NCBI GenBank assembly: GCA_020627535.1
Contig: JAHDGU010000001.1
Span: 164,670-228,669 of the forward strand
Direction: 5' to 3'
DNA: 64,000 bases
DNA from: Saprospiraceae bacterium
GTDB taxonomy: Bacteria; Bacteroidota; Bacteroidia; Chitinophagales; Saprospiraceae
A model generated the notes under the pieces. The model was not told the DNA's origin, ran no database searches, and saw only the letters and a list, made by a program, of their open reading frames with translations. The translations under genes were made by a program, and so were the position numbers. How positions within the stretch are numbered: position 1 is the stretch's first letter; each line of letters opens with the position of its first letter. Positions 1 to 22,570 of the stretch are shown here, piece after piece.

Positions 1-3000
1 AACCCTTGATCATCATAACAATCCAGGAGGGACTCGGCTTGATCCGATTGAAAGCTTGCTGTGCCTTGGATTGTATCTCCACAGCTCACACGTGTAGCAG
101 TCTTACACTCTGACCCGGAGAGCTCGTAGGCACCGATATCCACATACTGATCCATGATGCGGAATGAACCTTGGAGGTCCGTCTCTACGTCTGACGGAAT
201 CGCATCATTGTTGCCCTGATTGATGGCAGGTGAGCCTGTGGAGAGGCGAAGATCTCCTGTGAGCGTATCTAAGAAGAGTGGATCAGCGTCAAGATTATTC
301 CCGCCGTCAGTGACATTGGGAGGCATGATGACCATTCCATCTTCTGTGTCATCTTCCAAGATGGAATATGCTATGGTGACACTTTCTGATGATGTACTAG
401 CGATCTGAGCTCCAGAACTATTTGGGGCAGTATTTCCCCAGAAAATTGATCCCTGAATATCCAAGGAGCTCATACCTTCAGAACTAATGGCACCTCCTTG
501 TTGAGAGGCCATGTTTTGTGAAAAACTACAGTTGATAATTTCGTGATCATTCTGGCCTACGCTTCCTGTACTAAATATTGCTCCACCGTTGGCACAACTA
601 TTTTTGTAAAAAGCACAGTTGATCATCTCCGTAGAGCAACTTCCTGTGGAGCCCCAGTTATATATAGCAGCTCCTGCCAGGCTTGTTTCGTTTTTTGTGA
701 ATGCACAATTCAAAATTCTTGTGCTATTATTCCCCAAAGAAGCTCCATCGTTGAAAATACCAGCGCCAAAGATTCCAGAATTGCTGCTGAAAGAACAATT
801 GGAAATCGTGGGACTGCAAATGTTTCCTCCTTCTCTACCTCTCGTGTGGATGCCTCCCCCGGCACTTTCCGGGAAGGGGCCATCGCAATTCCCTCCTCTA
901 AAGCTGAAGCCATCCACCACGCAGCTCGAGTCTATATTTCCACGCACACTTTCACCATGGATGATCATGATGTGATAGCTATTGTCAGTGCTATCCCCGG
1001 TGACACCTATATCTCCTGAGAGTATGGTCTCATGTGCACGGAAGTCTCGATCTGCCCGAGCTGTCTCTGATCCATCAAAGCCTCCATAGATGGCAAGATT
1101 CTTTGGGATATAAAAAGTCTTGTGTCTGTCACTGGCAGGTAGAATTCCCAAACTCACGGTATCCGTCGGAAGATATGTCCCCTCTGCCACCCATATCTCC
1201 CCTGCGAGACTATCACACTCACAGGCGAGGTCGATAGCGTCTTGCAGATCTCTGAATGCACCAGACCAGATATTGCCGTGCTCAGGACCAGTCGCATCGA
1301 TATCTACGAGCAGGGCATTTTGCGCGCCGGGACAGAGATTTTCGTATGCACCCATGTCTACGGTATCTCGTATGATCCGAGGACTGCCTGCAAGATCGGT
1401 CGTGATGCCATCTGGAATGCTATCATTGTTCCCTGCATTGATGGCAGGGCTACCTAGCGTCAGACGCAGATCGGTGCTGTCTCGGAAGAGCGGGTCGCTA
1501 TCTAGATTGTTACCGCCGTCGATGACATCAGTCGGGACTCCACCTCCTATGATGGAGTGGCTGAGAGTGGTATGGTTGAGTGATGAGCTCTCATAGATTT
1601 CGTTTTCTAGGTTGGCTTCATTCTCCCAGAAGATGCAATTGCTGATAGTGATTGAATCTGTTACAGAATTGTAAATAGCCCCTCCATTAATGACAGCCAG
1701 ATTTTTTGAAAAACTACAATTGGTGATTGAGGCGTAGCATGCATTATTATATATCGCTCCACCAATATTGGCCTTGTTATTCAAAAAGACAGAGTTGCTC
1801 AATTCATATCTGGTAGAAGCTGTATTCCAGGCGTAGATTGCGCCGCCATCATTTGAGACTTCATTCTTCAAGAATGAGCAGTTAGCGATCTTGGCAGAAG
1901 TTTCACCTAATCTGCCATCTAGAAAGATTGCACCGGCATACCGGCCTTGATTTTCTCTAAATGTACAGTTGGCAATGGTCGGATTACAGACATTCCCTGC
2001 ATTTCGTCCTCGCACATATATCGCTCCTCCAGCATAGGCAGGATTGGTGCCATTACATAGGCCATGCTCAAATATAAATCCGTCGATCTCACAGCTCCTA
2101 TCGATATTGCCTCGCTCCAGCTCCCCATGGATCAGCATGATATGATAGCTATTGTCAGTGCTATCCCCAGTGACGCCGATGTCTCCCGAGAGTATGGTCT
2201 CATGCTCTCTCCAGTCTCTCTGAGATCTGGCATACTCTGTCCCGTCAAATCCACCAAATAGCTTGACATTCTTTGGGATGTAAAATGTCTTGTCTCGGTC
2301 TGTAGCAGCGACATCTGGATTGAAAGTGAGCGTCGGCAGATAGGTGCCTTCTGCCACCCAGATCTCACCCACCAGAATATCACAGTCGCAGGCGAGCTCT
2401 ATGGCGTCTTGTAGGTCTGTGATGGCATCGGACCATCGAAGGCCATCGTCATTACCTGTGGCATCTATATCTACCAATAGCCTTGAACCAGTGCCAAGTG
2501 GACAGAAAAACTCATAAGCACCCATGTCTTGTACTTCGTTGATCATTCTTTTTCTTCCTCGGATGTCTGTGGGCTCAGATTGATCTATATTGGTCCCAGT
2601 GTTGAGACAAGGACTTATGTACTGCAGGCTGTAATCACCTCCTCCGACAAATCGTGGATTCTCAGAAATATTTCCGTTGCTACCATTGGTCAGACCGCTC
2701 CCAGTATATTCTTCTAGGCTATTATGATGGCCCACTGTTATATTGCCTCCACCCGCGATATCTGAGGGCGTGCCATTGTCAAGGTTGTTATAAAAGATGC
2801 AGTTGATCAGTGAGTCAATATTGGCGGCTTTTTCTAGGGCTCCACCCGTTCCATTGGACTCATTATCGGCGAAAGTGCAGTTGAATATATCCATGCTTCC
2901 CACCTCATGTGCCAGTGCTCCAGCTGTGGTGCCAGATGTATTCCCAACAAATAGACAGTTGGTAATACGATTGCTATCTGCACGGCTATTGACTGCACCA

Positions 3001-3530
3001 CCGACGATGGCTGATCTATTGCCCCGGAAGCTGCATCGGTTCATGAACAGCTCTGTGCCCTCGTTGAGTCGGATGGCTCCTGCGAGGAATGAGGAGTTAT
3101 TCTCGAAGTTGCAGTCCTTGAGTATGAGAGCGTCCGCTCCAGTGGTAATTATCGCCCCTCCAAATCCTGTCGCAAGGCTTGTATCACCGCCATTAGAAAA
3201 GGAAATTCCAGTGAGTCGTAACTCTCCGCCAATATGATTGATAAATCTGCTGTCACGATCGACATCCTGCGAACCATCGACGAATGTGAGTCCTGGTCCA
3301 TTGCCCAATATAACCAGACTCCGGTTGATGGTGATCTGACCACTCGTCAAGAAGATGGTGTCCCCATCCAGAGATGTATCAAATCGTATGGTGTCTCCAC
3401 TACTTGCAGAATTGATGACATCTCGTAGACTACCAGTGCCACTGTCATTGAGATTGATGACTGTATCCGCTTGCGCGAAAATGCAAAGTGCGGTGAGGCT
3501 AAGTGCTAGGGTGAAAATGGTCCTTTTCAT
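1..3530 (-). CDS. Giant secreted right-handed parallel beta-helix repeat surface protein. 5' partial: the start ATG is at 3530 and the C-terminus lies beyond the window start.
   Basis: I translated the minus strand myself. The open frame runs from 3530 down to position 1 with no stop, which is why it is absent from the ORF track. The N-terminal signal peptide reads MKRTIFTLALSLTALCIFAQA. There are dozens of NxxFxxN / GGAIY / NCxF beta-helix rungs. Two about 390-aa modules are internally duplicated: DIDATG...EIWVAEGTYLPT...TFYIPKN...HETILSGDIGVTGDSTDNSYHIM(L/I)IHGE, encoded at roughly 950-1250 and 2130-2430. Confidence 0.7.
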   Translation of the reverse strand, partial: MKRTIFTLALSLTALCIFAQADTVINLNDSGTGSLRDVINSASSGDTIRFDTSLDGDTIFLTSGQITINRSLVILGNGPGLTFVDGSQDVDRDSRFINHIGGELRLTGISFSNGGDTSLATGFGGAIITTGADALILKDCNFENNSSFLAGAIRLNEGTELFMNRCSFRGNRSAIVGGAVNSRADSNRITNCLFVGNTSGTTAGALAHEVGSMDIFNCTFADNESNGTGGALEKAANIDSLINCIFYNNLDNGTPSDIAGGGNITVGHHNSLEEYTGSGLTNGSNGNISENPRFVGGGDYSLQYISPCLNTGTNIDQSEPTDIRGRKRMINEVQDMGAYEFFCPLGTGSRLLVDIDATGNDDGLRWSDAITDLQDAIELACDCDILVGEIWVAEGTYLPTLTFNPDVAATDRDKTFYIPKNVKLFGGFDGTEYARSQRDWREHETILSGDIGVTGDSTDNSYHIMLIHGELERGNIDRSCEIDGFIFEHGLCNGTNPAYAGGAIYVRGRNAGNVCNPTIANCTFRENQGRYAGAIFLDGRLGETSAKIANCSFLKNEVSNDGGAIYAWNTASTRYELSNSVFLNNKANIGGAIYNNACYASITNCSFSKNLAVINGGAIYNSVTDSITISNCIFWENEANLENEIYESSSLNHTTLSHSIIGGGVPTDVIDGGNNLDSDPLFRDSTDLRLTLGSPAINAGNNDSIPDGITTDLAGSPRIIRDTVDMGAYENLCPGAQNALLVDIDATGPEHGNIWSGAFRDLQDAIDLACECDSLAGEIWVAEGTYLPTDTVSLGILPASDRHKTFYIPKNLAIYGGFDGSETARADRDFRAHETILSGDIGVTGDSTDNSYHIMIIHGESVRGNIDSSCVVDGFSFRGGNCDGPFPESAGGGIHTRGREGGNICSPTISNCSFSSNSGIFGAGIFNDGASLGNNSTRILNCAFTKNETSLAGAAIYNWGSTGSCSTEMINCAFYKNSCANGGAIFSTGSVGQNDHEIINCSFSQNMASQQGGAISSEGMSSLDIQGSIFWGNTAPNSSGAQIASTSSESVTIAYSILEDDTEDGMVIMPPNVTDGGNNLDADPLFLDTLTGDLRLSTGSPAINQGNNDAIPSDVETDLQGSFRIMDQYVDIGAYELSGSECKTATRVSCGDTIQGTASFQSDQAESLLDCYDDQG

Positions 3531-3607
3531 GAGGGTATTTTATGATTGTTACAAAGTTGGAATCGTGAAGGAGTCATGTCAACTACATGATGATGTGGTG
3601 GTTGATG

Positions 3608-3649
3608 GTTCGTAGTTCAGAGTTCGTAGTTCAGAGTTCAGAGTTTCTC
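3608..3649. repeat. Tandem heptamer array GTTCGTA GTTCAGA GTTCGTA GTTCAGA GTTCAGA GTTTCTC
   Basis: Read directly. It lies in the divergent intergenic region between the beta-helix gene start (3530) and the response-regulator start (3784). Confidence 0.8.
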
Positions 3650-3729
3650 CATGCCTGAAATACGTTGACCTTAATGGAAAATGGCTGATGAGACTTTGGA
3701 AAGAAACTCAATCACACAATCAGTCGCCG

Positions 3730-3747
3730 ACTACATGATCATGTAGT
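3730..3747. promoter_or_regulatory. Perfect 18-bp palindrome ACTACATGATCATGTAGT (CTACAT-N4-ATGTAG), 37 bp upstream of the response-regulator start
   Basis: Read directly. Related copies lie at 3583-3598 (CTACATGATGATGTGG) and 7139-7154 (CTACATGATGATGTAG). Positions 3579-3596 and 7136-7153 share an identical 18-mer, TCAACTACATGATGATGT. Confidence 0.6.
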
Positions 3748-3783
3748 TGCAGCTCGACTTGAAGCGCTGTACCTTGGTACTTC

Positions 3784-4425
3784 ATGGAAGAGATAGCCGT
3801 TGCCATTATAGAAGATGATCCCGTGATCAGAGCCAGCTTGGTCAAGAGTGTGGAAATGTATCCTGCGATGAATCTGGTCTTTGCCGCTGGAAGTGTAGAG
3901 GATGCCCTTGACCATTTGGATGACAATCCTTCTGACATCCCAGATGTGGTCATGATGGATATAGGTCTGCCTGGCATGGATGGCATCTCTGGGATACCAC
4001 AGGTCAAGGAACGTCTGGAGAAAACCAATATCATCATGCTCACCACCTATGAAGAGCAAGAAAAGATATTCGCGGCGCTCTGCGCTGGCGCCTGCTCCTA
4101 TATTTCTAAGCGTACATCTCTCAAGCAGATCATGGATGCCATCTTCACCGTGTATCGCGGAGGTAGTTACATGTCACCTTCTATAGCGCGCAAAGTCGTC
4201 GAGCACTTCAAGCCGATCCAAGCCGTCAATCATACGGAGAAGCTGTCAGATCGGCAACTTCAGATCGTCGAGCATCTCAGTGATGGCAAGAGCTACAAGG
4301 CGATCGCTGATGTGCTTAAGATCAGTATCGATACGGTAAGATTTCACATCAAGAAGATCTATAAGCTCCTTGAGGTCAACACCAAGCTGGATGTCATCAA
4401 TCTGTATCGAGATGGTAAGCTCTAG
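3784..4425 (+). CDS. NarL/FixJ-family response regulator (REC domain plus LuxR-type HTH)
   Basis: It has an N-terminal receiver domain (DD...D54-like MMDIGLPGMDG, then ...T...K) and a C-terminal LuxR HTH (LSDRQLQIVEHLSDGKSYKAIADVLKISIDTVRFHIKKIYKKL). Confidence 0.9.
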   Translation: MEEIAVAIIEDDPVIRASLVKSVEMYPAMNLVFAAGSVEDALDHLDDNPSDIPDVVMMDIGLPGMDGISGIPQVKERLEKTNIIMLTTYEEQEKIFAALCAGACSYISKRTSLKQIMDAIFTVYRGGSYMSPSIARKVVEHFKPIQAVNHTEKLSDRQLQIVEHLSDGKSYKAIADVLKISIDTVRFHIKKIYKLLEVNTKLDVINLYRDGKL

Positions 4426-6755
4426 GGATTGACCAAGAAGCTAGCGGAGATTTTAAATCCTCCATCCATCTTATATTCAAAAGATCCACCGCACTCTTCG
4501 GCTCGTTGACGCATGCTTTGAAGACCAAGTCCAGAGGTCTTGATTTGTTGTGGATCTGGCTTGCCATTGTCTTGGATGGTCAGGTGTAGCATAGCACCTT
4601 CATCCTTGATTATGGCCTTGATTTCCGATCCGCCGCTGTGCTTAAGTGCATTGGTGATGGCTTCCTTGTAAACTAGATAGACGTTTTGTCGAGTCTTGGG
4701 ATGGATTTTCCTATGCTCTTTGAGCTTGCTTCTCAGGCTGATACTCTGATGGCTGAGATTGTCGCTCTCCGCGGTAAAGTCTCTCATGCGATCGATGAGA
4801 TCCGAGGTGTTGTCTTTGCGAGAGTCAATCGCCCAGACTGTGTCTCGCATGCTTTGCATGGCTTGACGGCTCATCTTGGCCAAGTTTTCTGTGGCTGCCT
4901 TGTCTTTTTCACTACTGAAGTCGTTGAGCAACTCTGACTGCATGGCTAGACCTGTCAGCGTGGAGCCGACCTCATCATGCAAGTCACGCGAGAGCTGAGA
5001 TCTGAACTGCTCTCTCTCTGATGCTCGTTGCTTATTGATGCGCTGTCTTTGGAGTTGATTTCCGAGATAAACCAGCAGCCCAAAGAATATCAGGGTGGCG
5101 ATCGTCAGCCAGCGCCATAGGCGTTTTTGACTACTTTCTTTTTGGCTCTGGAGCTCAAGACTGAGGATCTCCTTATCTTGCTCCGCGGTCTTATATTTGG
5201 TCTCCCACTCAGTGATGGCTTGCGTGCGCTCAGATCGATACATGCTATCGCGGAGTATAGCATAGTCTTCTAATGCTTGAGATTGGGCTCTGGGATTGTC
5301 ATAGCGCTTGTAGAAGCTACGCATAGTCTTGAGAGCGAGTAGCTGATTTTCCACATTGCCTTGCTCCTTGCTCATCGCATATGCCTGCTGCAGCTGCGCT
5401 TCGATTTCTGCCAGTGAGACAGGTACATTTTCAGTCTTGGCACTTTTATCACCGTCGCTTTGGTCGTATAGATCTGCGTAAAGCTCAGCCAGATTGATGA
5501 GGATCGCAGCTTGCTCGGGCTTCAGGCTAAGCTCGATGGAGGATGCCAGTGCATCTTGCAAGATCACATATGCTTCTTGGTGTCTCTCAAGAGAGATGAG
5601 ATCTTGACCAATTGCTTGATTGATTTCTAGAACGAGCTTTTTTTGCTGGAGTGGAGTTGCAAGTTTTTTGGCCTTGAGGTGAGATTGGAGTGCTTCGCTG
5701 TGTGCTGTCTGCGCCCGATGACAGTTGCCGATGCGTAGAGCATTGTATGCTTGTAAGAATTCATACGAGAGCTCTTCGGCTATTGCATTTGATAGACCAA
5801 AGCTCTCCATGGCCGACGGATAATCCTCCAGATCATACTTCACAGCGCCAATATTGTGATGCGCTAGCGCTGCACTACGTCGATTGCCTAGTCGCTCCTT
5901 GATCTCGAGGGACTGATAGTAGTACTGAAGTGCCTGGTCATACAGGCCTTGAGTGTGAGCTATATTCCCCAGATTATTAGTGACGACGGCAATCTGTGTT
6001 TCGTGATCGACCAGCATTGCAAGATCCAGTGCCTGGCGATAAGACTCGTATGCTTCTTCATATCTGCCAGCACTTCGATGGAGTCGCCCTTGTGTGCTGT
6101 ATGCTGAAGAGACCGCGGTAGTCATCTCATGCGACATCTCATTTGCACGAAAGTGCAGTGCTCGATCCAGTACCCCAAGTGCAGAATCAGGCTTACCATC
6201 ATCTCTGAGTTGCTGTGCTTGCTCTACAAGTGTGTAAATGATATTGGCGCTATCGTTAGTATTCCGATAGATCATTAAGGCAGAATCTGTCAGGCTTTGA
6301 GCCAAGGAGTGTTCTCCGCGCTCCTTGGCGAGCTCGCCAAGGCCCAAGAGAGCTTTGCCTTGGAATACTGTCAAGCCACTAGTACTTGCCATGTCGAACA
6401 AGACATAATACATCGACCCCGCCATCTCGACTTCTCCAAGCTGCACCAGTCGACCTGCCGAGAGGTGAGTCAATCTATGGGTACAGCTATCTCCCGTACA
6501 TTTTTTTCGGGCTTCCGCCAAAATGACCTCAAGGTCCTCTGGAAATCGAGTCTTGCCAATGAGTCTCGTGAGGGACTCTTCCACATTGACCACTTCTTCA
6601 TCTTGATATGCTGCCCAGTGATCCTTAAATGTGATTTGTCCTGGAGGCGCTTGTGCGTGAGTCACAGCCAGAAAAAACACCTGACAAAAAATGACGACAA
6701 CAAGATGCGCTGGTCGGAAGAGGGGTAATAGGAGAGTGACTTTTCTCCTGATCAT
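4422..6755 (-). CDS. TPR-repeat sensor histidine kinase (HisKA_3 plus HATPase_c, NarL-partner class)
   Basis: A signal peptide is followed by a long TPR-like region, one transmembrane segment (WRWLTIATLIFFGLLVYLG), an H-box (LHDEVGSTLTGLAMQSE) and a C-terminal ATPase domain. It converges on the response-regulator gene with a 4-nt tail-to-tail overlap. Confidence 0.85.
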   Translation of the reverse strand: MIRRKVTLLLPLFRPAHLVVVIFCQVFFLAVTHAQAPPGQITFKDHWAAYQDEEVVNVEESLTRLIGKTRFPEDLEVILAEARKKCTGDSCTHRLTHLSAGRLVQLGEVEMAGSMYYVLFDMASTSGLTVFQGKALLGLGELAKERGEHSLAQSLTDSALMIYRNTNDSANIIYTLVEQAQQLRDDGKPDSALGVLDRALHFRANEMSHEMTTAVSSAYSTQGRLHRSAGRYEEAYESYRQALDLAMLVDHETQIAVVTNNLGNIAHTQGLYDQALQYYYQSLEIKERLGNRRSAALAHHNIGAVKYDLEDYPSAMESFGLSNAIAEELSYEFLQAYNALRIGNCHRAQTAHSEALQSHLKAKKLATPLQQKKLVLEINQAIGQDLISLERHQEAYVILQDALASSIELSLKPEQAAILINLAELYADLYDQSDGDKSAKTENVPVSLAEIEAQLQQAYAMSKEQGNVENQLLALKTMRSFYKRYDNPRAQSQALEDYAILRDSMYRSERTQAITEWETKYKTAEQDKEILSLELQSQKESSQKRLWRWLTIATLIFFGLLVYLGNQLQRQRINKQRASEREQFRSQLSRDLHDEVGSTLTGLAMQSELLNDFSSEKDKAATENLAKMSRQAMQSMRDTVWAIDSRKDNTSDLIDRMRDFTAESDNLSHQSISLRSKLKEHRKIHPKTRQNVYLVYKEAITNALKHSGGSEIKAIIKDEGAMLHLTIQDNGKPDPQQIKTSGLGLQSMRQRAEECGGSFEYKMDGGFKISASFLVNP

Positions 6756-6852: not shown

Positions 6853-7086
6853 CTATGAAGCCAAAGAATACTTCGCCAATAGATTTTGTAAAAGGGCTTC
6901 GCGTACGATGCCTGCCACATTGCGTACCTGTAGTTTTTGCATGATCTTCTTGCGATGCGACTTGACGGTCTCGTCACTGATGTAGAGTCTCTGTGCGATT
7001 TCCTTGGTGCTACACTCTTGGACAATGAGCTCAATCACCTCTGATTCTCTTGTGCTTAGGCGGGTTTCGTGATTTTGAATTCTCAT
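6853..7086 (-). CDS. Stand-alone LuxR-family HTH transcriptional regulator (77 aa)
   Basis: The protein carries the LuxR HTH motif LSTRESEVIELIVQECSTKEIAQRLYISDETVKSHRKKIMQKL. It lies immediately upstream of the TPR kinase on the same strand. Confidence 0.75.
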   Translation of the reverse strand: MRIQNHETRLSTRESEVIELIVQECSTKEIAQRLYISDETVKSHRKKIMQKLQVRNVAGIVREALLQNLLAKYSLAS

Positions 7087-7138
7087 GGTGATTTTCTTTT
7101 CTCAGGATAAAGGTTTGATTCTCTGACTTGTCAATCAA

Positions 7139-7154
7139 CTACATGATGATGTAG
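7139..7154. promoter_or_regulatory. CTACAT-GATG-ATGTAG inverted repeat about 50-60 bp upstream of the orphan LuxR gene start (7086, minus strand)
   Basis: Same motif family as 3730-3747. It lies in the promoter region of the LuxR-then-TPR-kinase transcription unit. Confidence 0.55.
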
Positions 7155-7518
7155 CGAGCGCATCAGTCCTTGACGCATCTGACGCTGAAGTCTGCCCGAA
7201 GTGCGGTTGGGAAAAACTGTCTAATGTCAATCGTGTTGAAAACGGCGAATGGTGCAAGATAGATAGCACCAGGAGCATAGGTATGCCAATAGGACGCTAG
7301 TAAGAGATCTCCAAAGAGTCCTGAAACCTCCATCTCGGGTTATAAATCCAGAAGAGTCTGTTGCATTAGTTCTGGAATAGATTTGTCCAAAACTATCCTA
7401 GCCAAGTTCAGTTCATAAGAGCTTCTGATGCATCGATTCTCATGGTCAGACCGACGGTTTTTGAAGCATACATTTTATCCCCATCTATGTCTGTAGAGAG
7501 TCAAGAAAAAGCGGCATC

Positions 7519-10068: not shown

Positions 10069-10073
10069 GTATA

Positions 10074-10991: not shown

Positions 10992-11003
10992 CTTGGTTTT
11001 GAT

Positions 11004-12164: not shown

Positions 12165-12239
12165 ATTGTGGAACCTAAATCTAGCAGATTCTCAGGGAAG
12201 GGGTGTTGGTTGATAGTTAAGGGTTTCGTGAACCGAGGA

Positions 12240-12587
12240 CCGTGAACCGTGGACCGAAGTGATGTTTGCTGAGCGCGCCCGCCTGCCTTTGGTAGGTCTC
12301 GCTAGAGCTTTATGCGTCCTCGTACTGAGAAGGATGAACTGGAGTTGGAACTTGGGACAAACCGTTTCTCGAGTGAGCTAGTCAATCGATGCACAAATTC
12401 ATAAAAGCAATGAATCTCTGCAAAAGCCCTAGAATTCAACGAAGCCAAAGCCCAGCGTATAGCATGCAAGAGGTACGATCAAAAAGCTGCTCTGCGAACG
12501 AACAATCGTGGCACGAATAATAAACAACTGTCACCTGTCAACTATCAACTGTCAACCGCTCGACGGTTTACGGTCCACGGTTCACGG
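12240..12587. repeat. Perfect 17-bp inverted repeats (CCGTGAACCGTGGACCG at 12240-12256; reverse complement at 12571-12587) bracketing a 314-bp non-coding segment
   Basis: Read directly from the sequence. Each inverted repeat lies inside a longer heptad-periodic array (12203-12258 and 12528-12593). Confidence 0.8.
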
Positions 12588-12597
12588 TAAACCTCCC

Positions 12598-15264: not shown

Positions 15265-15406
15265 TGTTGCAAATGATTTGAACTTCACTTGCATGACGCA
15301 TTGCTCAGATCATACCCTACGACAAGTCAGGAAAGATTTATTTTTTGATGGAGACCTTGCCTCAAGGATTGATCTAGGCAAAGTAAAACTGCGAAAATGC
15401 TCTGGG

Positions 15407-15955
15407 TTATTTTCCGTGATTCGCCTGCCAGTCTTTGACAATCTGTGGTGGCTCTTCTCCTTCCGCGACAAAGATGAGTGACGCAGAATTCATACAGTAT
15501 CTCAAGCCTGTGGGCTCTGGCCCATCTTTGAAGACATGCCCCAGATGAGATCCACTTCCGCTATCCACTACTTCTATCCTGACCATACCGTAGCTTTTAT
15601 CGACGACCTCGACTACGGCATCTTCCTCAATCGGCTCGTAAAAACTTGGCCAACCAGTACCTGAGCGAAATTTCGTCTCTGAGCTGAATAAGGGCTGACC
15701 AGTGGCAGCAGAGTAGTAAATGCCTTTCTTCTTATTGTCCCAATACTCACCTGTGAATGCACGCTCAGTACCATGCTTGCGCAAAATGTAAAACTGCTCA
15801 TCCGTCAGCTGTTGCTTCCACTCTTCATCCGTCTTTTGGACTGGGTAGTTTGTATGATCATCAGACGAAGTGCTTTTTGTCTGACAAGACACGGGTAAGA
15901 ATGCAAGACAAAGACCAAGAACCAGTGAAAATCTCATAATACGCTTGTTTGACAT
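15407..15955 (-). CDS. msrB: Peptide-methionine (R)-S-oxide reductase MsrB, lipoprotein form
   Basis: The SelR motifs RYCMNSASL and GHVFKDGP are present. The lipoprotein-type signal is [26 protein letters not shown] trimmed the ORF-track start at 16039 to the internal Met. Confidence 0.8.
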
Positions 15956-16060
15956 CATAATTCGAAAAACCAAGTTTTTGTTGTCCAGTCCCATGGTAGC
16001 ACCAAGACAAAGTCTCCAATCTATCCATGCTTCGGTCAACGTATTTCAGGTATGGAGAAA

Positions 16061-16125
16061 CTATCAACTATCAACCAACAACCAACAACCAGTCCACGGT
16101 CTACGGTCCTCGGTTGACGAAACCA
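16061..16125 (+). repeat. Heptanucleotide-periodic repeat element: CTATCAA x2, CCAACAA x2, CCAGTCC, ACGGTCT, ACGGTCC, TCGGTTG, ending ...ACGAAACC
   Basis: The 7-nt periodicity is continuous over 65 bp. It is homologous to 12528-12593, 18677-18767 and, inverted, 12203-12258. Confidence 0.8.
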
Positions 16126-16196
16126 AATACCGAACTCGGGGGATTGCGCCCATCTGATTCCACTCAGTTCTTTGCGTCATAAATCAAAGCTACACT

Positions 16197-18485
16197 ATGA
16201 TGTATTCTAGATTCAATCTCATTCTTGCCTTATCACTCTTGACCATTGGCCTTTCTGCACAGGCTATCGACGACGCTGAGATCCGTGGTGACGGTATCGT
16301 CGTGCCTGCTGTGGATCGGCTGGCGGTCGTTGCCCCATCCACTGGTCAGCTCGTCTTCGATGTCAATACGCTCAGCTACTGGATGCACGATGGTAATGTG
16401 TGGCGGGCTGTAGGAGACAATATTGTCGGTAACATGATTCAAGACGCGGATGGAAGCACCAGTGTGCAGACAGAACCTGGCGGACTAGAGCAAGTCCTGA
16501 TCGAGGTCGATGGTCGAGATCGGTGGAGGTTTTTGGGACATGCGCTAGAGCCTCTCATTCCCAGTAGTTCCATATTCATGGGACAGTCAGCAGGTGCCGC
16601 TAGTTCTGATACAGCTTACAACAATGTCGGCATCGGAAATTTCTCGCTGATCTCGGTCAGCTCAGGAAGATGGAATGTAGGCATCGGCCATAATGCCCTG
16701 AGCGACAATACATCAGGAGAAAAAAATGTTGCCATCGGTTCTTCCGCAATGCTTGGCAACAAGGCGAGCTCCGACAATGTCGCCATAGGTAATAGTGCAT
16801 TACTCTCGGTCGACTCCTCACAGTTCAATGTCGCTATCGGCTCTTATGGACTCCATAGCCTAGACAAAGGTCTTCGCAATGTAGCCATCGGAACCTCTAG
16901 CCTCTATGAATCCGAGACAGGAAAGCTCAACACCTCCATCGGCTATGCTGCAGGACACAATACCCTCGGAGATGGCAATGTATTTCTCGGCCACGAGGCT
17001 GGTTTCAATGAACTAGGAAGTAACAAACTCTACATCGCCAACTCCAATGCCGATAGCGCCGATGCGCTGATCTACGGTGACTTTTCCAGTTCTGAACTCT
17101 ACATCAATGGAGATCTGCAGTCTGATCAGTTCACCACAGATCAGATCACGACCACTACCATAGACGTCGACGACAAACTCACCGTCAAGAGCGACTCTCG
17201 CCTGTTTGGTCATCTCTTTCTACACGCCCTCCAGGGCCTAGGGCAAAGTGGCACAGCCTATATCCAAGCCAGAGATCACACTGCTGCTACGAGTGTTGGT
17301 CTACAGTTTCGCGTGACGGACAATGGTGTGGTTGATGACGCCCTCGCGATCAATAAAGATGGTCAAGTCCTGTTTCAGAACAAGGAGATCTACTTCGGTA
17401 CGAGTCTCTTGATTCACACCACAGGTAGCAACAACTTCTTTGCAGGATTTGCTGCTGCCCCTTCAGCCTCGGGTTCCTCCAATACAGCGGTCGGTTCGCA
17501 AGCAGCTCAGAGCCTTTCTACGGGCTCTCAGAATTCAGCAATCGGCCGGCTTGCAGGTCAGGACCTCTCCAGCGGATTTGGAAATACACTATTGGGTTTT
17601 TCTGCGGGTAAAGACTTGACGACCACGACTGGCAACACCATGATCGGTAACAATGCAGGTGCTTCGATCAATAACGGGGGCTCCAATACCATCATCGGTA
17701 GCCAAGCAGGATGGAACACCAGCTTTTCGTCAAGCAACACCTTCATAGGATTTGATGCGGGCAGGTACACCGCTGGAAGCAAAAACACATTCCTTGGGAC
17801 CAATGCTGGTGAGACCACTTCTGGTGGTCCCAGCTACGATAATAGCATAGCTATCGGATACAGTGCTGTGGCCAATTGCCATAACTGTGCAGTGATCGGC
17901 AATGATGGATCAGAGGATGTTAATCTCGGTATCGGTATCTCGGCTCCTCAGTCCGTCATCCATGTCAAGCAGCGCAACTCAGGCACAGATCGCGGTATCC
18001 GTATAGAAGACACCGATGGGACATACTGGAATACCTACATCGACGCATCTAATGATTACAACTTCGCTCACGACGGCACACTTCGTGCTTACATACAGGA
18101 TGGTGCTGGTGCCTTTGTCATCACTTCTGATCGCAGCGTCAAGACAGCCATCAGCTCTGTCGGAGACGTATTGCCACGGGTGATGGGGCTTTCGCCCAAA
18201 TGGTACAGATACAACAACATGTCACCCGATCAACCCAAGGTCATGGGCTTCATCGCACAAGAAGTGGAGGAGCAGTTTCCTGGCATCGTACGCCAAAAAG
18301 GAAAGCTCAAGACCCTCGCATACGATGACTTTGCCATCATCAGCATCAAAGCCATCCAAGAACTCAATGACAAGGTCAACGAAAAGGATTCAAGGATCAC
18401 AGAACTAGAAGAGCAAAATGAGGAATTGGCCAAGCGACTAGAGAGATTGGAAGCGTTGGTACTCAGTGATCCATTGACTGACTAA
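16197..18485 (+). CDS. Secreted tail-fiber-like protein: YadA/Hep_Hag-like NxAIG repeat region plus a C-terminal peptidase S74 intramolecular-chaperone auto-processing domain
   Basis: The Sec signal peptide is MMYSRFNLILALSLLTIGLSAQA. There are more than 20 repeats of N(V/T)AIG..AL. The C-terminal SDRSVKTAISSVGDVLPRVMGLSPKWYRY...VMGFIAQEVEEQFPGIV...LAYDDFAIISIKAIQELNDKV...ELEEQN matches the endosialidase / tail-spike CIMCD pattern, including the Ser-x4-Lys dyad. Confidence 0.7.
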   Translation: MMYSRFNLILALSLLTIGLSAQAIDDAEIRGDGIVVPAVDRLAVVAPSTGQLVFDVNTLSYWMHDGNVWRAVGDNIVGNMIQDADGSTSVQTEPGGLEQVLIEVDGRDRWRFLGHALEPLIPSSSIFMGQSAGAASSDTAYNNVGIGNFSLISVSSGRWNVGIGHNALSDNTSGEKNVAIGSSAMLGNKASSDNVAIGNSALLSVDSSQFNVAIGSYGLHSLDKGLRNVAIGTSSLYESETGKLNTSIGYAAGHNTLGDGNVFLGHEAGFNELGSNKLYIANSNADSADALIYGDFSSSELYINGDLQSDQFTTDQITTTTIDVDDKLTVKSDSRLFGHLFLHALQGLGQSGTAYIQARDHTAATSVGLQFRVTDNGVVDDALAINKDGQVLFQNKEIYFGTSLLIHTTGSNNFFAGFAAAPSASGSSNTAVGSQAAQSLSTGSQNSAIGRLAGQDLSSGFGNTLLGFSAGKDLTTTTGNTMIGNNAGASINNGGSNTIIGSQAGWNTSFSSSNTFIGFDAGRYTAGSKNTFLGTNAGETTSGGPSYDNSIAIGYSAVANCHNCAVIGNDGSEDVNLGIGISAPQSVIHVKQRNSGTDRGIRIEDTDGTYWNTYIDASNDYNFAHDGTLRAYIQDGAGAFVITSDRSVKTAISSVGDVLPRVMGLSPKWYRYNNMSPDQPKVMGFIAQEVEEQFPGIVRQKGKLKTLAYDDFAIISIKAIQELNDKVNEKDSRITELEEQNEELAKRLERLEALVLSDPLTD

Positions 18486-18676
18486 GTGATACTTCTCGCG
18501 CGCGTTCCTTTTTTCTTGCTGTGCCTGTCTACCTCTGGCAGGCGCGTCCCCGCGCCAGCCACTGCGAGGCAAGTCCCTCATGTCAAGAGGGATTTAGGGA
18601 GTTCTCACTACACAGTTTTCAGCCAGCAAGGAACCCACCCAAACGCCCTCAAGAAAAAGGGCTTACACCAATTTTT

Positions 18677-18767
18677 CTATCAACGCCCAACTCCCAATCA
18701 GTCCTGAATTCACGGTCCACGGTTCTCGGTCCACGGCTCACGTCCTCGCTCTCCAGTCCACAGTCTT
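18677..18767 (+). repeat. Heptanucleotide-periodic repeat element: CTATCAA, CGCCCAA, CTCCCAA, TCAGTCC, ..., ACGGTCC, ACGGTTC, TCGGTCC, ACGGCTC ...
   Basis: Thirteen consecutive heptads in the same orientation as the 16061 copy. The two copies flank the tail-fiber-like gene. Confidence 0.75.
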
Positions 18768-18804
18768 GATAGCTATCGGGAACGATTTACGACCGTCAGC
18801 CATG

Positions 18805-21800
18805 TCATTCATCCAAAGGCATTACTAGTCTTATACGATAACCATCTTCTCGGTCAATCTTCAGAGTGCCTCGGATCTGCTCAGCGCGCAAGCGCATATT
18901 GCTGATGCCGAGACCATCTGTGCTGAGAAGTTCGTGCTTGGAGCCATTGTCATGGACAGTATAGGATAGTCGAGGGCCTTCTGCTACTAGACGGATGGCT
19001 ACTGCATTTCCGTCTGAGTGCTTCTGGATGTTGGTGATGGCTTCTTTGTGGATGAGATAGAGCTGCTGCCGCAGGGTGGGGCTCATGCTTTTTGAGCTAT
19101 CGATACCTGTGACCTGAAAGTCTACGGCCCAGCGCTGTTCTGGCAGTCGCTTTTGGGCGAAAGCTCGCATCCGATCGATGAGATTCTCGTACTTGTCTTT
19201 GCGAGAATCTATGAGCCAAACGGTATCGCGCATCCTCTCCATCGCATCACGACTCATCTCATTCATCTCGGCGAGTGATTCCTTGTCTTCTTCTTTGGCC
19301 GTCATGCTCATGATCTCGGACTGCATGGCCAGACCTGATAAGATGCTACCTACATCATCATGCAGATCACTGCTGACTTTGACGCGCCACTGATTGAGCG
19401 CTTTTTCCTTATTCACTTTTGCGCGAAAGCGCGCATAAAATACACCAAATACGATCCCACAAGCAAGTAGCAAGCCCAGCGCCTGTACCCAGCGACGATG
19501 ATACCAGACTGCAGGTCGATAAAAATCAATATGATGCTCAGCGTACTGCTCACCCTGTGGATCTGCACTGGCTCTGAGATGCACAGTGAATGCCCCTGTA
19601 GGTAGTGAGATCAATTCCAGCTCCGATCTCGTATCGTATCGACTCCAGCTGCCTTCTTCGCCATTGAGACTGTAAGCGTACCAGCGATCGTCAGTGATGC
19701 TGGGAGAGCTGTACCTCATGGTCAAGAGTTCGTCAGATGGGAGTAGTTTGATGGGCTCAGTCCGAGACATGAGATCCGAAAATACACTGCGGTACTCATC
19801 GAACTTACTGTTGTAGATACTCACATTGTGCACAAATAGATCGGATATACTTTCCTTCGGCGAGGCAAAAGGCAATATATCTGGATTGATGCGGAAGAGC
19901 CCCTCTACGCTCCCAAGATACGTATGTCCATCGCTTGCGCTAAAATGTGCATTGCGATTATATTCTACTTGACTGAGAGGATGACCATCGGGAAGTCGCT
20001 CGATGAGACCAGTGTCCATGCGATAGATCAATAGTCCTTGCCCCGTACCAAGTAGCAGCCTAGAGTCTGCCAAAGGATGGATGAAATAAATGGCGTCGTG
20101 TACATCTTCACCGTCCTGCTTACGGGCAAATCCCGGCAGGAGCTCACCTTGATTTTCTCCTTCTCGGATGACAGCTAGGCCAAAGTGTGTACCGTAATAC
20201 AGATCACCTTTAGCTTGATGCAGGGAGGTGACAATCGTATTTTTTCTGGTCAGCCCTAAGTCCTCTCTGATCATTTGCTTGGTCATATGTCCACGACGAT
20301 CTAGCCAGTGGATCCCTCGCAGGTCTGTAGCTAGTATGAAGGCGCTCTCGCTTTGATCCTGATTGCGAATGAGTGCATTCCCTATGATCGGTTTGTCAAA
20401 GAGGGCTTCTTGGATAATGGTATCCCTCATACTCTCGAGCTGTGTCTTGAATATCCTGGCATTGCGATCATAGGTCCAGAGAGTGTCCTTTTCGTGGAGA
20501 TGAAGGCTCATAGACTTCTTGAGAGACCCAGGGAGGCGACTCAGCTGGAGGTCGCTGAGTCGATACCTGTAGTTGTCCCAGATGAGATGTGTCGCAGAAG
20601 TCGACAGGCTAAAGGCTTCATTGTAGGTGTTCTGAGGATTCAGACGCAGTGACCTAAAGCTCTCTGTGCCAGCTTCGCATACGCTGACATCGGTATAGTA
20701 GCTCACATATACATTTCCCTCGGAGTCCTCACATATCTGTCGCACGCTCGGATATGGCTCTGTCTGCGATACTGGAACTCGCCAGTCATCTAGAGAAGCT
20801 GCCACTGGCTCTGCCAGATATAAGGTACTATTGAAGACTAGAATGTAGGAATCAGCACCATAGCTGATGACCTGCTGCAAGGTCTCATTCCTTTTTTTGA
20901 GATCAAAGCGATCATTGAGTTCCGCGAGCTCAGATGTATAGTCCTCTGTGGTTTTTGTAGTGCTATTGTACAGCCAGACGCGCTGTTTGAAGTCACTGAG
21001 CCAGACCTCTTGTGGAAAAGTGAATGTGTTGTAGCTGCTTCCTTCAAATTCAGCGTTTTTGATCTCGATAGGTTTGACGATTTGGCGGATCGGATCTACA
21101 CTGAGGCTCTTTTCTTCGCTCGCGCGCATGATGTGCAAGCCGGGTTGATTGGTCAATTCAAAGCTGCCATAAGCTGGCAACGTCATCAGCTCGTTGCCCA
21201 TGCGATCTAGAGCGATCAAGGAGAGATCCTTGAAGATCCAAATAGTGTCCTGGAGGACTCTCGGTGGAGAGGAACTTCCAACTGGTAACTTCGTCTTGAA
21301 GAGTAGCGAGGTATCCTCAGTCATCTCATATACATGGCCAAGGTCGGACTTCCTATGACGGGCAATGAAATAGGATTTTCTTGTGGCAATATCCTGGCAC
21401 AAATAAAGCAGAGCGAATTTGTCCTCCAATCTTATTTCCTTCATCACCTGCCGTCGATCTGTGTCCCAAAGACAGAGCTTGTAGTGGAAGTTGATGTTGT
21501 CAAAGAAGATCAGCCATATCCTTGAGCTATCAAGGCCTGCCATCGACAAGAATCCATAGCCGTCTTGATTGATTTGCAAGGTGTCGCCTGCTGCCGTGAA
21601 GTTGTATCTCGTCGCTCGCTGACCGTCAAAGCAGATAAGATTTTCTTGTGCAGCATACCACAGGAAACCATGACGGTCCCAGTGTGGAGGATTGGACGAG
21701 ACGATCCAGAGACCTTCATCCTCAGGACTACTGAGTAGGCTGATATTATAACTGAGCTCTTCATCATTCTGCGCGTGTGCAATCTCTGGGATCAGAGACA

Positions 21801-21876
21801 AGACAAGTAGGATCAAGATGTAAGGACTGAGTCTCATGCTGTAAGAAGCGGTGTGAAGATATAGTGCAGTTCCCAA
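18805..21876 (-). CDS. Sensor histidine kinase with large periplasmic beta-propeller / Y_Y_Y-type sensor domain (HisKA_3 plus HATPase_c)
   Basis: A signal peptide is followed by about 750 aa of propeller-like repeats, a transmembrane segment (VQALGLLLACGIVFGVFYA), an H-box (LHDDVGSILSGLAMQSE) and an ATPase domain. The C-terminus is paralogous to the kinase at 4422..6755. Confidence 0.8.
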   Translation of the reverse strand: MGTALYLHTASYSMRLSPYILILLVLSLIPEIAHAQNDEELSYNISLLSSPEDEGLWIVSSNPPHWDRHGFLWYAAQENLICFDGQRATRYNFTAAGDTLQINQDGYGFLSMAGLDSSRIWLIFFDNINFHYKLCLWDTDRRQVMKEIRLEDKFALLYLCQDIATRKSYFIARHRKSDLGHVYEMTEDTSLLFKTKLPVGSSSPPRVLQDTIWIFKDLSLIALDRMGNELMTLPAYGSFELTNQPGLHIMRASEEKSLSVDPIRQIVKPIEIKNAEFEGSSYNTFTFPQEVWLSDFKQRVWLYNSTTKTTEDYTSELAELNDRFDLKKRNETLQQVISYGADSYILVFNSTLYLAEPVAASLDDWRVPVSQTEPYPSVRQICEDSEGNVYVSYYTDVSVCEAGTESFRSLRLNPQNTYNEAFSLSTSATHLIWDNYRYRLSDLQLSRLPGSLKKSMSLHLHEKDTLWTYDRNARIFKTQLESMRDTIIQEALFDKPIIGNALIRNQDQSESAFILATDLRGIHWLDRRGHMTKQMIREDLGLTRKNTIVTSLHQAKGDLYYGTHFGLAVIREGENQGELLPGFARKQDGEDVHDAIYFIHPLADSRLLLGTGQGLLIYRMDTGLIERLPDGHPLSQVEYNRNAHFSASDGHTYLGSVEGLFRINPDILPFASPKESISDLFVHNVSIYNSKFDEYRSVFSDLMSRTEPIKLLPSDELLTMRYSSPSITDDRWYAYSLNGEEGSWSRYDTRSELELISLPTGAFTVHLRASADPQGEQYAEHHIDFYRPAVWYHRRWVQALGLLLACGIVFGVFYARFRAKVNKEKALNQWRVKVSSDLHDDVGSILSGLAMQSEIMSMTAKEEDKESLAEMNEMSRDAMERMRDTVWLIDSRKDKYENLIDRMRAFAQKRLPEQRWAVDFQVTGIDSSKSMSPTLRQQLYLIHKEAITNIQKHSDGNAVAIRLVAEGPRLSYTVHDNGSKHELLSTDGLGISNMRLRAEQIRGTLKIDREDGYRIRLVMPLDE

Positions 21877-21940
21877 TCACCCCATCTCGGTATGGTGTCC
21901 GCGCTAGAGAAGCTCTACATTTGAAACTGAATATCTCCAG

Positions 21941-22570
21941 ATGAAGCTACACATCATAGAAGACAATCTCAAGATCAGAGCTCACCTCGAGACCTTTCTT
22001 GGCCATCAAGAGGATATCGCCTGTGTGCAAAGCCACACAAGTGTAGAGTTTTTCTTGAGTGCTGTGGATTCTGGTCAAGCCAAGCCAGATGTGATTCTAT
22101 TGGATATCGGGCTTCCTGGGATGTCTGGTGTAGAAGGTATCCCGGAGATCACTCAGCGACTTCCCGAGACAGATATCATCATGCTCACCACCTATGAGGA
22201 GGAAGAAGTCATACTCAATGCGCTCTGTGCCGGTGCTCATGCCTATCTCAGCAAGAAGAGTAGTCTGCAAGAGATCCATACTGCGATCAAGGTGGTACGG
22301 GCTGGAGGAAGCTATATGTCGCCCAATATTGCTCGCCAGATCGTGAGACATTTTGGCGGAAGCCGTACACCTAAAAAAGCCGAAATCCTCACCGAACGCC
22401 AGCTCAAAGTCCTCAAACTACTTGTGGATGGATTGACCTACGGAGCGATTGCCAAAGAGCTTTTTATTTCTGCAGAGACGGTCAAGACGCATGTCAAGAA
22501 CATCTACAAGAGTCTCCACGTGAGCAACAAGGCCGAAGCCATCCAGAAGTATATGCGAGGAGAGATCTAG
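21941..22570 (+). CDS. NarL/FixJ-family response regulator (REC plus LuxR HTH), paralogous to the regulator at 3784..4425
   Basis: The receiver motif LLDIGLPGMSG...IIMLTTYEE and the HTH TERQLKVLKLLVDGLTYGAIAKELFISAETVKTHVKNIYKSL are present. It is divergent from the kinase at 18805..21876. Confidence 0.9.
   Translation: MKLHIIEDNLKIRAHLETFLGHQEDIACVQSHTSVEFFLSAVDSGQAKPDVILLDIGLPGMSGVEGIPEITQRLPETDIIMLTTYEEEEVILNALCAGAHAYLSKKSSLQEIHTAIKVVRAGGSYMSPNIARQIVRHFGGSRTPKKAEILTERQLKVLKLLVDGLTYGAIAKELFISAETVKTHVKNIYKSLHVSNKAEAIQKYMRGEI

Follow-up and report, generated by a model that had tools for sequence, protein, structure and literature searches.

The closest described relatives of the systems analysed here are the NarX/NarL-type two-component systems (TCSs). 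NarL output domains bind inverted heptamers in a 7-2-7 arrangement as dimers, and sites of this type located at about -38 to -49 activate the napF and yeaR promoters (PMC4549865). The -7 box recognised by the sigma-A factor of the Bacteroidota has the sequence TAnnTTTG (PMC9723704). In this work we analysed positions 1-22.5 kb of a 64-kb window (the whole stretch of Saprospiraceae DNA under study), using the rest of the window as comparison flank. The gene map, obtained from the listing of open reading frames (ORFs) together with Pfam and NCBIfam scans, contains two such systems: TCS1, with the histidine kinase HK1 and the response regulator RR1, which adjoins a gene for a large beta-helix adhesin-like protein, and TCS2, with HK2 and RR2, which adjoins a gene for a trimeric-fibre-like protein with a Peptidase_S74 (S74) domain.

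Like NarX and NarL, both pairs combine a HisKA_3 plus HATPase_c kinase with a REC plus GerE regulator, and their best NCBIfam matches were the NarL, UhpA/UhpB, MctR/MctS and MadR/MadS families. Their candidate 16-bp 7-2-7 operators are placed about as the activating napF and yeaR sites. Unlike NarX, which senses through a four-helix bundle, the window kinases carry a TPR array (HK1) and a predicted double propeller (HK2), and no HAMP domain was detected in them; the window half-sites differ from TACYYMT, and kinase and regulator are not co-transcribed. Scores against the NCBIfam equivalogs were far below the cut-offs (125 vs 300 for MctR, 76 vs 408 for UhpB and 54 vs 600 for FimS), which indicates that the window TCSs are not orthologues of any named system.

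A preliminary description of this DNA had interpreted the whole stretch as one coordinately regulated, possibly horizontally mobile locus for cell-surface remodelling, bracketed by two paralogous TCSs. We consider, with moderate confidence, that it is instead an ordinary native stretch of the chromosome, in which a conserved backbone is interspersed with two separate modules, each formed by a NarL-type TCS and a surface protein. The cis-motifs and the conserved synteny described below suggest that TCS1 probably controls the beta-helix adhesin and TCS2 probably controls the S74 fibre. The TCS2 module comprises three genes:

16197..18485, plus strand: secreted trimeric-fibre-like protein with YadA-head-like NVAIG repeats, a coiled coil and a C-terminal Peptidase_S74 chaperone domain
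18805..21837, minus strand (ORF 18805..21876): HK2, with signal peptide, all-beta sensor of ~750 aa, one transmembrane segment, HisKA_3 and HATPase_c
21941..22570, plus strand: RR2, NarL/LuxR-family regulator (REC plus GerE), divergent from HK2 and therefore not in an operon with it

A search with RR2 gave 1064 relatives, 120 of which were listed, and the genomic contexts of the best-scoring ones on long contigs were fetched (the fetched loci are designated by L numbers). The fibre, kinase and regulator genes were linked in these arrangements:

L100 (JAHDBH010000070, from the assembly of the Saprospiraceae metagenome-assembled genome (MAG) MAG-106): fibre (+), HK (-), RR (+), as in the window; 59/52/71% identity
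L101/L102: HK (-), fibre-like (+), RR (+); HK 30%, RR 58% identity
L103: HK (-), fibre-like (+), RR (+); HK 34%, RR 58% identity
L105: HK (-), fibre-like (+), RR (+); HK 30%, RR 57% identity
L104: fibre-like, S74, HK and RR, all co-directional; HK 36%, RR 57% identity

Linkage of the three genes was thus observed in 5/5 sampled genomes with a regulator at least 56% identical to RR2, in otherwise unrelated neighbourhoods. In L100 the neighbours are a class-II tRNA synthetase gene and a TonB_C gene, and the contig is different from the one that bears the MAG-106 backbone (L005, see below). The kinases of L101/L102, L103, L104 and L105 have ~1000 aa and are 30-36% identical to HK2. The fibre homologues of the same loci are 27-47% identical to the window fibre in the aligned stretches; the longest alignments span most of the protein in L103-L105 and, in L101/L102, its residues ~117-570. 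The HK2-RR2 linkage was kept in 7 other loci. Since the trio recurs in unrelated neighbourhoods, the conserved portable unit is fibre-HK2-RR2 and not a 22-kb block. Literature searches on the trio or on HisKA_3/Y_Y_Y kinases yielded nothing specific and no description of the trio; this combination of fibre, propeller kinase and regulator is the only mildly novel item of the stretch.

A common sequence element accompanies the trio. Promoters of Bacteroides possess a TTG element at -33, and a 20-nt motif found at only two places of the window abuts such an element upstream of the fibre gene and reappears ahead of RR2:

16127..16146, plus strand: TCS2-type motif ATACCGAACTCGGGGGATTG, which is an imperfect inverted repeat and directly adjoins the -33 TTG of the predicted fibre promoter
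21874..21893, minus strand: second TCS2-type copy ATACCGAGATGGGGTGATTG, in the HK2-RR2 spacer, 22 nt upstream of the RR2 -7 box
21916-21923: RR2 -7 box TACATTTG

Comparison of the window with L100 revealed that, upstream of the fibre gene, the block ATACCGA...GGGKGATTGCG has been retained amid diverged intergenic DNA. In the HK-RR spacer, the reverse complement of this block and the TACATTTG -7 box have both been retained. The fibre-like genes of L103, L104 and L105 are preceded by the same architecture as in the window and L100, namely an inverted repeat ending in GGGKKA, TTG, ~20 nt and a -7-like box containing TTTG, the latter located 20-35 nt before the ATG. In all five loci the inverted repeat with GGGKKA at the -33 TTG lies 55-65 nt before the ATG. 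Across the 3.4 Mb of fetched loci, the core GGGKKATTG had a background of 1.9e-5 per position; with so low a background, its presence within the right 100-nt window and in the right orientation in four further genomes is very unlikely to be due to chance. The core GGGTGATTG was also observed at 7941-7959 of L106, a Chitinophagaceae genome with a fibre-less RR2-like system, ~50 nt upstream of the regulator gene, a position that is consistent with autoregulation as the ancestral role of the motif.

The TCS1 module, at the left end of the stretch, comprises the following genes:

3..3530, minus strand: beta-helix adhesin-like protein with signal peptide and Chlam_PMP and choice-of-anchor-Q repeats; >1176 aa, running off the left end of the window
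3784..4425, plus strand: RR1, NarL/LuxR-family regulator (REC plus GerE)
4422..6755, minus strand: HK1, with signal/anchor segment, periplasmic TPR sensor, one transmembrane segment, HisKA_3 and HATPase_c
6853..7086, minus strand: sLuxR, a stand-alone GerE/LuxR helix-turn-helix (HTH) protein of 77 aa; its gene shares the strand of HK1 and lies 97 nt upstream of it

The convergent RR1 and HK1 genes, whose ends overlap by 4 nt, do not form an operon. The adhesin gene contains an internal duplication of ~390 aa with a period of 1170 nt (900-1138 vs 2070-2308, 72% identical); a contig of the Logan assembly ends within this duplication, at window position 2005. sLuxR, which the preliminary description had overlooked, resembles HTH-only regulators of the GerE type, such as Bacillus GerE or cyanobacterial PedR. 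A homologue with 46% identity is encoded in L003 (12884-13087) between GH9 and an S74-domain protein, and neither the TCS1 nor the TCS2 motif was found in that neighbourhood.

An 18-bp palindrome, ACTACATGATSATGTAGT, with the layout CTACATG-AT-CATGTAG (7-2-7, followed by TTG), is present in three intergenic copies (3582, 3730 and 7138), vs 0.11 expected:

3582..3599: copy A ACTACATGATGATGTGGT; on the minus strand it abuts TTG, ~52 nt upstream of the adhesin ATG
3730..3747: copy B ACTACATGATCATGTAGT, perfect, followed by TTG, ~20 nt and a -7-like box; ends 37 nt before the RR1 ATG
7138..7155: copy C ACTACATGATGATGTAGC; on the minus strand it abuts TTG, ~52 nt upstream of the sLuxR ATG

Behind every copy come a TTG, ~20 nt and a -7-like box, and a start codon follows at a distance of 37-55 nt. 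What the three copies have in common is limited to these elements and the palindrome itself; their flanks differ, which argues that they are not copies of a mobile element. The arrangement recalls class II activation by LuxR at the lux box, where the target promoters likewise have an 18-20 bp palindrome lying over their -35-equivalent element. In contrast to LuxR, there is no autoinducer-binding domain here, and the promoter is of the Bacteroidota kind (-33 TTG and -7 TAnnTTTG). From this one genome we infer that the palindrome is the candidate operator of TCS1.

An unbiased scan of the window for a 7-2-7 inverted repeat (at least 6/7) followed by TTG gave 8 matches, vs 2.9±1.6 in shuffled sequences. 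Two of the four intergenic matches, and the highest-ranking ones, were TCS1 sites (the third palindrome copy scores 5/7). The other two are located on the plus strand at 60798-60816 (GACCCTG-AT-CTGGGTC-TTG, 133 nt ahead of a 229-aa ORF without annotation at 60931..61620) and at 62703-62721 (GATCACA-CT-TTTGATC-TTG), and may be operators for other HTH dimers.

The half-sites of the two modules are different (CTACATG for TCS1, YCACCC for TCS2), while the geometry, 7-2-7 and then TTG, is shared. The same geometry with a different half-site argues for two insulated regulons. Neither the TCS1 palindrome nor the TCS2 motif was found upstream of the M36, PD40, PLP, GH9 or MsrB genes, which lie between the two systems.

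One important question is whether the two systems arose from one another within this locus. The preliminary description had called the kinase cores paralogous and the regulators about 50% identical, and the alignments bear this out. The cores of HK1 and HK2 share 39% identity along 224 aa (E 9e-44), with aligned H-boxes (DLHDEVGS and DLHDDVGS) and aligned KEAITN..KHS and GLG..M segments (the N and G boxes of HATPase_c). RR1 and RR2 are 48% identical over 206 aa; both contain REC (PF00072) and GerE (PF00196), and the DIGLPGM motif is conserved. HK1 matched HisKA_3 (PF07730) with E 8e-12 and HATPase_c (PF02518) with 32.9 bits, above the threshold; HK2 matched HisKA_3 with E 6e-10 and HATPase_c with 24.9 bits, slightly below the 26.4 cut-off. 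As a local duplication, however, the paralogous modules do not stand, because all 120 listed foreign regulators are nearer RR2 (52-76% identity, at least 223 bits) than RR1 is (48%, 182 bits). When scored against RR1, 93 of these 120 also beat RR2, and foreign kinase cores share 44-45% identity with HK1 or HK2, vs 39% between HK1 and HK2. This indicates that the two pairs are members of one family and not sister paralogues, and a recent local duplication of regulator-kinase pairs was rejected.

Both kinases possess an N-terminal signal/anchor segment and one transmembrane segment right before HisKA_3, which indicates that both sensors are extracytoplasmic. Of the sensor assignments in the preliminary description, the TPR region of HK1 is confirmed; the propeller of HK2 is backed only indirectly. 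In HK2 the Pfam Reg_prop matches were sub-threshold, and homologues carry Reg_prop and Y_Y_Y. An exhaustive HMMER search with HK2 yielded 2349 relatives at E<=1e-3 and 24 at E<=1e-30. The best one was the L100 orthologue (47%), and the distant tail included proteins of ~1350 aa, the length of the hybrid two-component systems (HTCSs) of Bacteroides. A word-indexed search had missed this 47-52% orthologue, which was found by the exhaustive search and by the RR2 route. A low-confidence AlphaFold2 model of the HK2 sensor (pLDDT 52), built from an 11-sequence alignment and used for fold class only, gave 15 top Foldseek matches in the PDB that were all periplasmic domains of BT4663, BT3049 and BT4673 (E 6e-24 to 1e-17, TM about 0.35). 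An HTCS-like sensor of the double propeller plus Y_Y_Y class is therefore supported only indirectly, and by analogy the ligand is probably a glycan.

The topology of HK2 (signal peptide, ~750-aa sensor, one transmembrane segment) is that of a Bacteroides HTCS. Unlike an HTCS, HK2 is a classical kinase with HisKA_3 instead of HisKA, without fused REC or AraC domains (the protein stops behind HATPase_c, at residue 1023) and with a separate NarL-type partner; it has neither SusC/SusD nor a polysaccharide-utilization locus (PUL) nearby, and its conserved neighbour is the fibre and not a set of glycan-utilisation genes. Given HisKA_3, the lack of a fused receiver or AraC domain and the absence of SusC/SusD nearby, HK2 is not an HTCS. 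SusC, SusD, TonB_dep_Rec and Plug domains were absent from every window ORF scanned, so by domain content the stretch is not a PUL.

For HK1, the closest described architecture is FimS of Porphyromonas gingivalis, a TPR-sensor kinase that governs fimbrial adhesins and whose partner regulator FimR is of the OmpR type. HK1 resembles the FimS/FimR system in its periplasmic TPR region between an N-terminal anchor and a transmembrane segment and in the large adhesin-like gene that adjoins it, and its TPR region matches the FimS model NF053520 (residues 139-402). The score was 53.9 bits vs a cut-off of 600, and HK1 has a HisKA_3 transmitter and a NarL-type partner; HK1 is therefore not an orthologue, and its likeness to FimS, drawn by analogy, is weak and restricted to architecture. 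The sole TCS1 relative found was L082 (kinase 36%, regulator 56% identical), where a co-directional HK-RR operon is divergent from a gene for a surface protein with CotH, LTD and a type IX secretion system (T9SS) tail. The L082 operon, together with the HK2-RR2 linkage kept in 7 other loci, favours the predicted pairing of each kinase with its adjacent regulator. Besides L082, a metagenome scan with HK1 gave only generic TPR proteins; a word-indexed HK1 search was swamped by CHAT/TPR proteins.

The remaining genes of the stretch, and those that follow it directly, are listed below:

7522..10068, plus strand: M36 fungalysin-type metallopeptidase with PA domain and C-terminal 'coathanger'; 56% identical and syntenic in MAG-106, backbone
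10074..10991, minus strand: PD40 (TolB-like) beta-propeller protein with signal peptide; absent at the matching MAG-106 position
11004..12164, minus strand: cytoplasmic Cys/Met-metabolism pyridoxal-phosphate (PLP) enzyme; 64% identical and syntenic in MAG-106, backbone
12598..15294, minus strand: GH9 glycoside hydrolase with CelD_N and T9SS C-terminal sorting domain; beside the tyrosyl-tRNA synthetase (TyrRS) gene in two relatives
15407..15958, minus strand: MsrB (SelR) methionine-sulfoxide reductase with lipoprotein-like signal peptide
22567..24644, minus strand: PhzF-family protein and TyrRS; TyrRS is housekeeping backbone and directly abuts GH9 in relatives

The domain calls of the preliminary description for the beta-helix, M36 with PA, PD40, GH9 with CelD_N and T9SS tail, and the Peptidase_S74 fibre were correct. 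Its statement that the genes are all secreted or surface proteins was not, since the PLP enzyme is cytoplasmic, MsrB is a periplasmic repair enzyme and the GerE-only regulator sLuxR (6853..7086), also cytoplasmic, had been missed. The M36 protease scored 824 bits vs the 885 cut-off of the 'T9SS-dependent M36' equivalog, and its C-terminus is a GCX_COOH '3-coathanger stack' domain, with no recognised T9SS sorting domain.

The nearest GH9 relatives were found in Saprospiraceae and Chitinophagales MAGs (47-54% identity), so that synteny was compared at about family distance, with locus L005 of MAG-106 (JAHDBH010000066) as the nearest available relative. In L005, the FtsX, TyrRS, GH9, PLP, M36 and SMC genes are contiguous, with gaps of no more than ~55 bp, in the window orientations and with 53-65% amino-acid identity, and no TCS was found among them. 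In L008, TyrRS is directly followed by GH9. With respect to MAG-106, the window has PhzF-RR2-HK2-fibre-MsrB in addition between TyrRS and GH9, PD40 between PLP and M36, and sLuxR-HK1-RR1-adhesin where MAG-106 has SMC. Since GH9, PLP and M36 are syntenic with TyrRS without any TCS, these genes belong with the housekeeping TyrRS and not with the two-component systems. The preliminary description had named conservation of its genes in synteny, with no co-regulation, as the result that would speak against it, and the MAG-106 arrangement comes near to this. The region is fluid and insertion-tolerant, over an older TyrRS-GH9-PLP-M36 backbone whose order and orientation are shared with MAG-106. GH9 and PLP are adjacent and co-directional beside TyrRS in both the window (11004-15294) and L005 (2722-6742), with no obvious functional link between them.

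The composition of the stretch does not depart from that of the flank. GC content was 0.482 in the stretch vs 0.470 in the rest of the window, with flat profiles; the synonymous-codon fractions of the two parts correlated at 0.97, and tetranucleotide profiles in 8-kb segments gave correlations of 0.83-0.94 with no break across the window. The deviation in composition and codon usage that an acquired block would have led one to look for was thus not found, and the stretch is compositionally native. Neither tRNA nor tmRNA genes were found, no integrase or transposase domain appeared in any Pfam scan of the window ORFs, and no long direct repeats bounding the stretch were found, its left boundary falling beyond the window. 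The 22 kb were not seen as one block present or absent when compared with MAG-106, where the backbone is in place and the trio is on another contig. The stretch resembles genomic islands and integrative elements in having lineage-specific genes with respect to a relative, many surface proteins and local repeats. It differs from them in the absence of compositional deviation, of integrase or transposase, of a tRNA target, of bounding repeats and of block-wise presence/absence.

The segment 24-64 kb contains housekeeping genes (GroEL, MiaB, CoaE, LptE, a sigma-54 activator and a Mur ligase), and no further TCS was found there in domain scans. A T9SS cargo gene is located outside the stretch, at 56723..59485. 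At 36640-37845 (minus strand), among the housekeeping genes, lies a gene for an HD-domain protein with a C-terminal PycTM (a transmembrane domain of the Pycsar effector type), which may act alone as a defence-type effector, unless the domain match is misleading. In-frame coding repeats were observed at 31868-32076 (66-nt tandem units, SPFH/Band_7 protein) and at 54819-55034 (Lys/Glu-rich units of 24 and 48 nt, unannotated 339-aa protein).

The intergenic DNA of the stretch contains degenerate heptamer arrays, (CAACTRT)n and (ACGGTYC)n, at five sites between 3.6 and 18.7 kb and nowhere else in the window:

3601..3670, minus strand: 28-nt head GGTCAACGTATTTCAGGYATGGAGAAAC and degenerate heptamer array, between palindromes A and B
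12201..12258: heptamer array at the left edge of the GH9/PLP insert, inverted with respect to 12525-12590
12525..12590: heptamer array at the right edge of the insert; terminator-like hairpin on the GH9 strand
16034..16124, plus strand: 28-nt head and heptamer arrays, directly upstream of the operator-like motif of the fibre gene
18677..18742, plus strand: heptamer array in the spacer where the 3' ends of the fibre gene and HK2 face each other

Arrays were present in 4/5 intergenic regions of at least 200 bp in 1-22.5 kb vs 0/7 in the rest (Fisher p=0.010). The insert of ~390 bp between GH9 and PLP (12201..12590) corresponds to a gap of no more than ~55 bp in MAG-106 and contains no ORF; Rfam gave nothing in the window, nor, with E values up to 1 allowed, in the insert (12.1-12.65 kb). 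Both head-plus-array copies abut operator-like sites, those of the adhesin and the fibre. No heptamer arrays were found in the MAG-106 loci. Because significant hairpins were obtained in only 2/10 strand/site combinations, a uniform family of structured RNAs or terminators was rejected. The arrays mark the stretch as insertion-tolerant; they may be elements similar to repetitive extragenic palindromes (REPs) or miniature inverted-repeat transposable elements (MITEs), a regulatory array or a slipped-strand remnant. The preliminary statement that repeats and palindromes are confined to the stretch is right for the arrays and wrong for generic short palindromes, which occur all over the window; the only recurrent palindrome is the specific 18-bp sequence of TCS1. 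In other lineages, unrelated intergenic repeats were observed beside S74-like fibre genes, in L003 (13500-13860, three ~95-bp units) and in L103 (7655-7900, GTTTAGAAAGTTTAGAAAAAGTGTGAATTCAAC-type units).

These data suggest the following mechanism. The periplasmic double-propeller domain of HK2 would sense an extracytoplasmic ligand, probably a glycan by analogy, and HK2 would phosphorylate RR2. From the conserved position and sequence of the sites and the NarL precedent we infer that a dimer of phosphorylated RR2 would bind the imperfect inverted repeat at the -33 TTG and activate the promoter of the fibre gene and its own. At the other end of the stretch, RR1 and/or sLuxR would bind the 18-bp palindrome, with autoregulation and adhesin expression as the outputs. 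With different operator sequences, and not being closest relatives, TCS1 and TCS2 would be insulated circuits. Their proximity would reflect a plastic, insertion-tolerant region and not a co-regulated or mobile island. Of the coordinate regulation that had been proposed, the link between each TCS and its neighbouring surface gene is thus probable, and the single 22-kb unit is not upheld, as the motifs differ and M36, PD40, PLP, GH9 and MsrB have neither.

Several observations weigh against this interpretation. The promoter elements and the activator positions were read from the sequence alone, and in both the window and L100 the left half-site of the TCS2 motif is poorly palindromic. The core motif is missing from L101, and the TCS1 palindrome was absent from every fetched locus other than the window, L082 included. 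In L106 and L107, with an RR2-like regulator (53%), the regulator is followed by an HK2-like kinase without a fibre neighbour. Synteny rests mainly on one MAG at family distance, and MAG contigs can be mis-binned; L002-L004 (Saprospiraceae MAGs, GH9 53-54%) have other GH9 neighbours, so the backbone is not universal. Every tested protein of the stretch was a singleton 90% cluster, with no close relative in the collections searched, and exact-sequence look-ups gave Logan contigs 100% identical to the window, with no variation in repeat number and no added context on the left flank. The clustering of the arrays (p=0.01) marks the region as locally special, and the AlphaFold2 model of the HK2 sensor is of low confidence.

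Among the alternatives, a role of the fibre itself in signalling has the most to recommend it, although we regard it as unlikely. On this reading the HK2 propeller would have the fibre, or the S74 fragment released by auto-cleavage, as ligand or co-sensor that reports surface assembly, and the fibre would not (only) be the output. The constant linkage of fibre, kinase and regulator in the sampled genomes would fit, as would the position of the fibre gene between kinase and regulator in three of them, where it is probably co-transcribed with the regulator. There is also a precedent in Porphyromonas gingivalis (PorA/PorY): PorA, a T9SS cargo-like protein, is described as ligand of PorXY (PMC12152298). 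However, the conserved inverted repeat at the fibre promoter suggests that expression of the fibre is what is controlled, at transcription; oligosaccharides are the ligands of those HTCS-type sensors whose structures have been solved (BT4663 descriptions), and the two related systems of L106 and L107 work without a fibre neighbour. A slightly lower probability, and hence a small one, is given to the reading of the palindromes and inverted repeats as MITE ends, REP-like hairpins or terminators, with the TCSs regulating unlinked genes. The same intergenic regions do hold dispersed-looking heptamer arrays and the shared 28-nt head, one array pair brackets the 390-bp insert missing in MAG-106, and some arrays fold as hairpins. 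Against it, the TCS1 copies share palindrome, TTG and -7-like box but not flanks, and are located upstream of start codons and not downstream of stops; the TCS2 motif is kept at the orthologous promoter position in array-free genomes, and there were no Rfam matches.

It is also quite improbable, and more so than either of the foregoing, that the two systems are coupled in function without being an evolutionary unit, either through control of TCS2 by sLuxR or RR1 or through cross-phosphorylation of RR2 by HK1. The similarity of the dimerization and catalytic (DHp/CA) cores (39%) and of the regulators (48%) and the closeness of the genes would favour such cross-talk, and the recognition-helix region of sLuxR (TVKSHRKK), as read from the sequences, is nearer that of RR2 (TVKTHVKN) than that of RR1 (TVRFHIKK). 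Paralogous two-component systems are normally insulated, however, no motif is common to both modules, and each module is independent in other genomes. The least probable of all, and very improbable, is the original proposal, a single co-regulated and possibly horizontally acquired surface-remodelling island over the whole 1-22.5 kb. In its favour, 18 kb contain two NarL-type systems while the following 41 kb contain none, 5/8 genes between the systems encode signal-peptide proteins, the heptamer arrays are confined to the stretch, and the genes that are extra with respect to MAG-106 all fall in it. Native composition and codon usage and the lack of mobility and tRNA genes contradict a horizontally mobile block, and the synteny of GH9, PLP and M36 with TyrRS in a TCS-free locus largely refutes the island. 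The fibre-HK2-RR2 trio, moreover, occurs alone in other contexts, the cis-motifs differ and are missing before M36, PD40-PLP, GH9 and MsrB, a cytoplasmic PLP enzyme is encoded within the stretch, and T9SS cargo is also encoded outside it.

Two separate modules on a native backbone thus remain our preferred interpretation. Beyond it, we put forward only tentatively that the trio is a portable cassette for signalling and adhesion, not described before, which belongs to Saprospiraceae, Chitinophagales and related Bacteroidota. In this cassette an HTCS-like sensor would act through HisKA_3/NarL signalling on a YadA-head/S74 fibre by means of a conserved operator of the 7-2-7 type that is joined to the -33 element; feedback on the sensor may come from the fibre or its chaperone fragment, and the arrays could add a lineage-specific layer of regulation or recombination.

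The picture of a mobile island gives way to that of two insulated circuits, for each of which an operator and a target gene can be proposed. For genome annotators, the lesson is that clustering of two-component systems with secreted proteins is not enough to make an island. The linkage between an HTCS-like kinase and a tail-fibre-like protein, together with the conserved promoter block, provides a lead on how non-gut Bacteroidota may couple the sensing of extracellular, probably glycan, ligands to adhesion.

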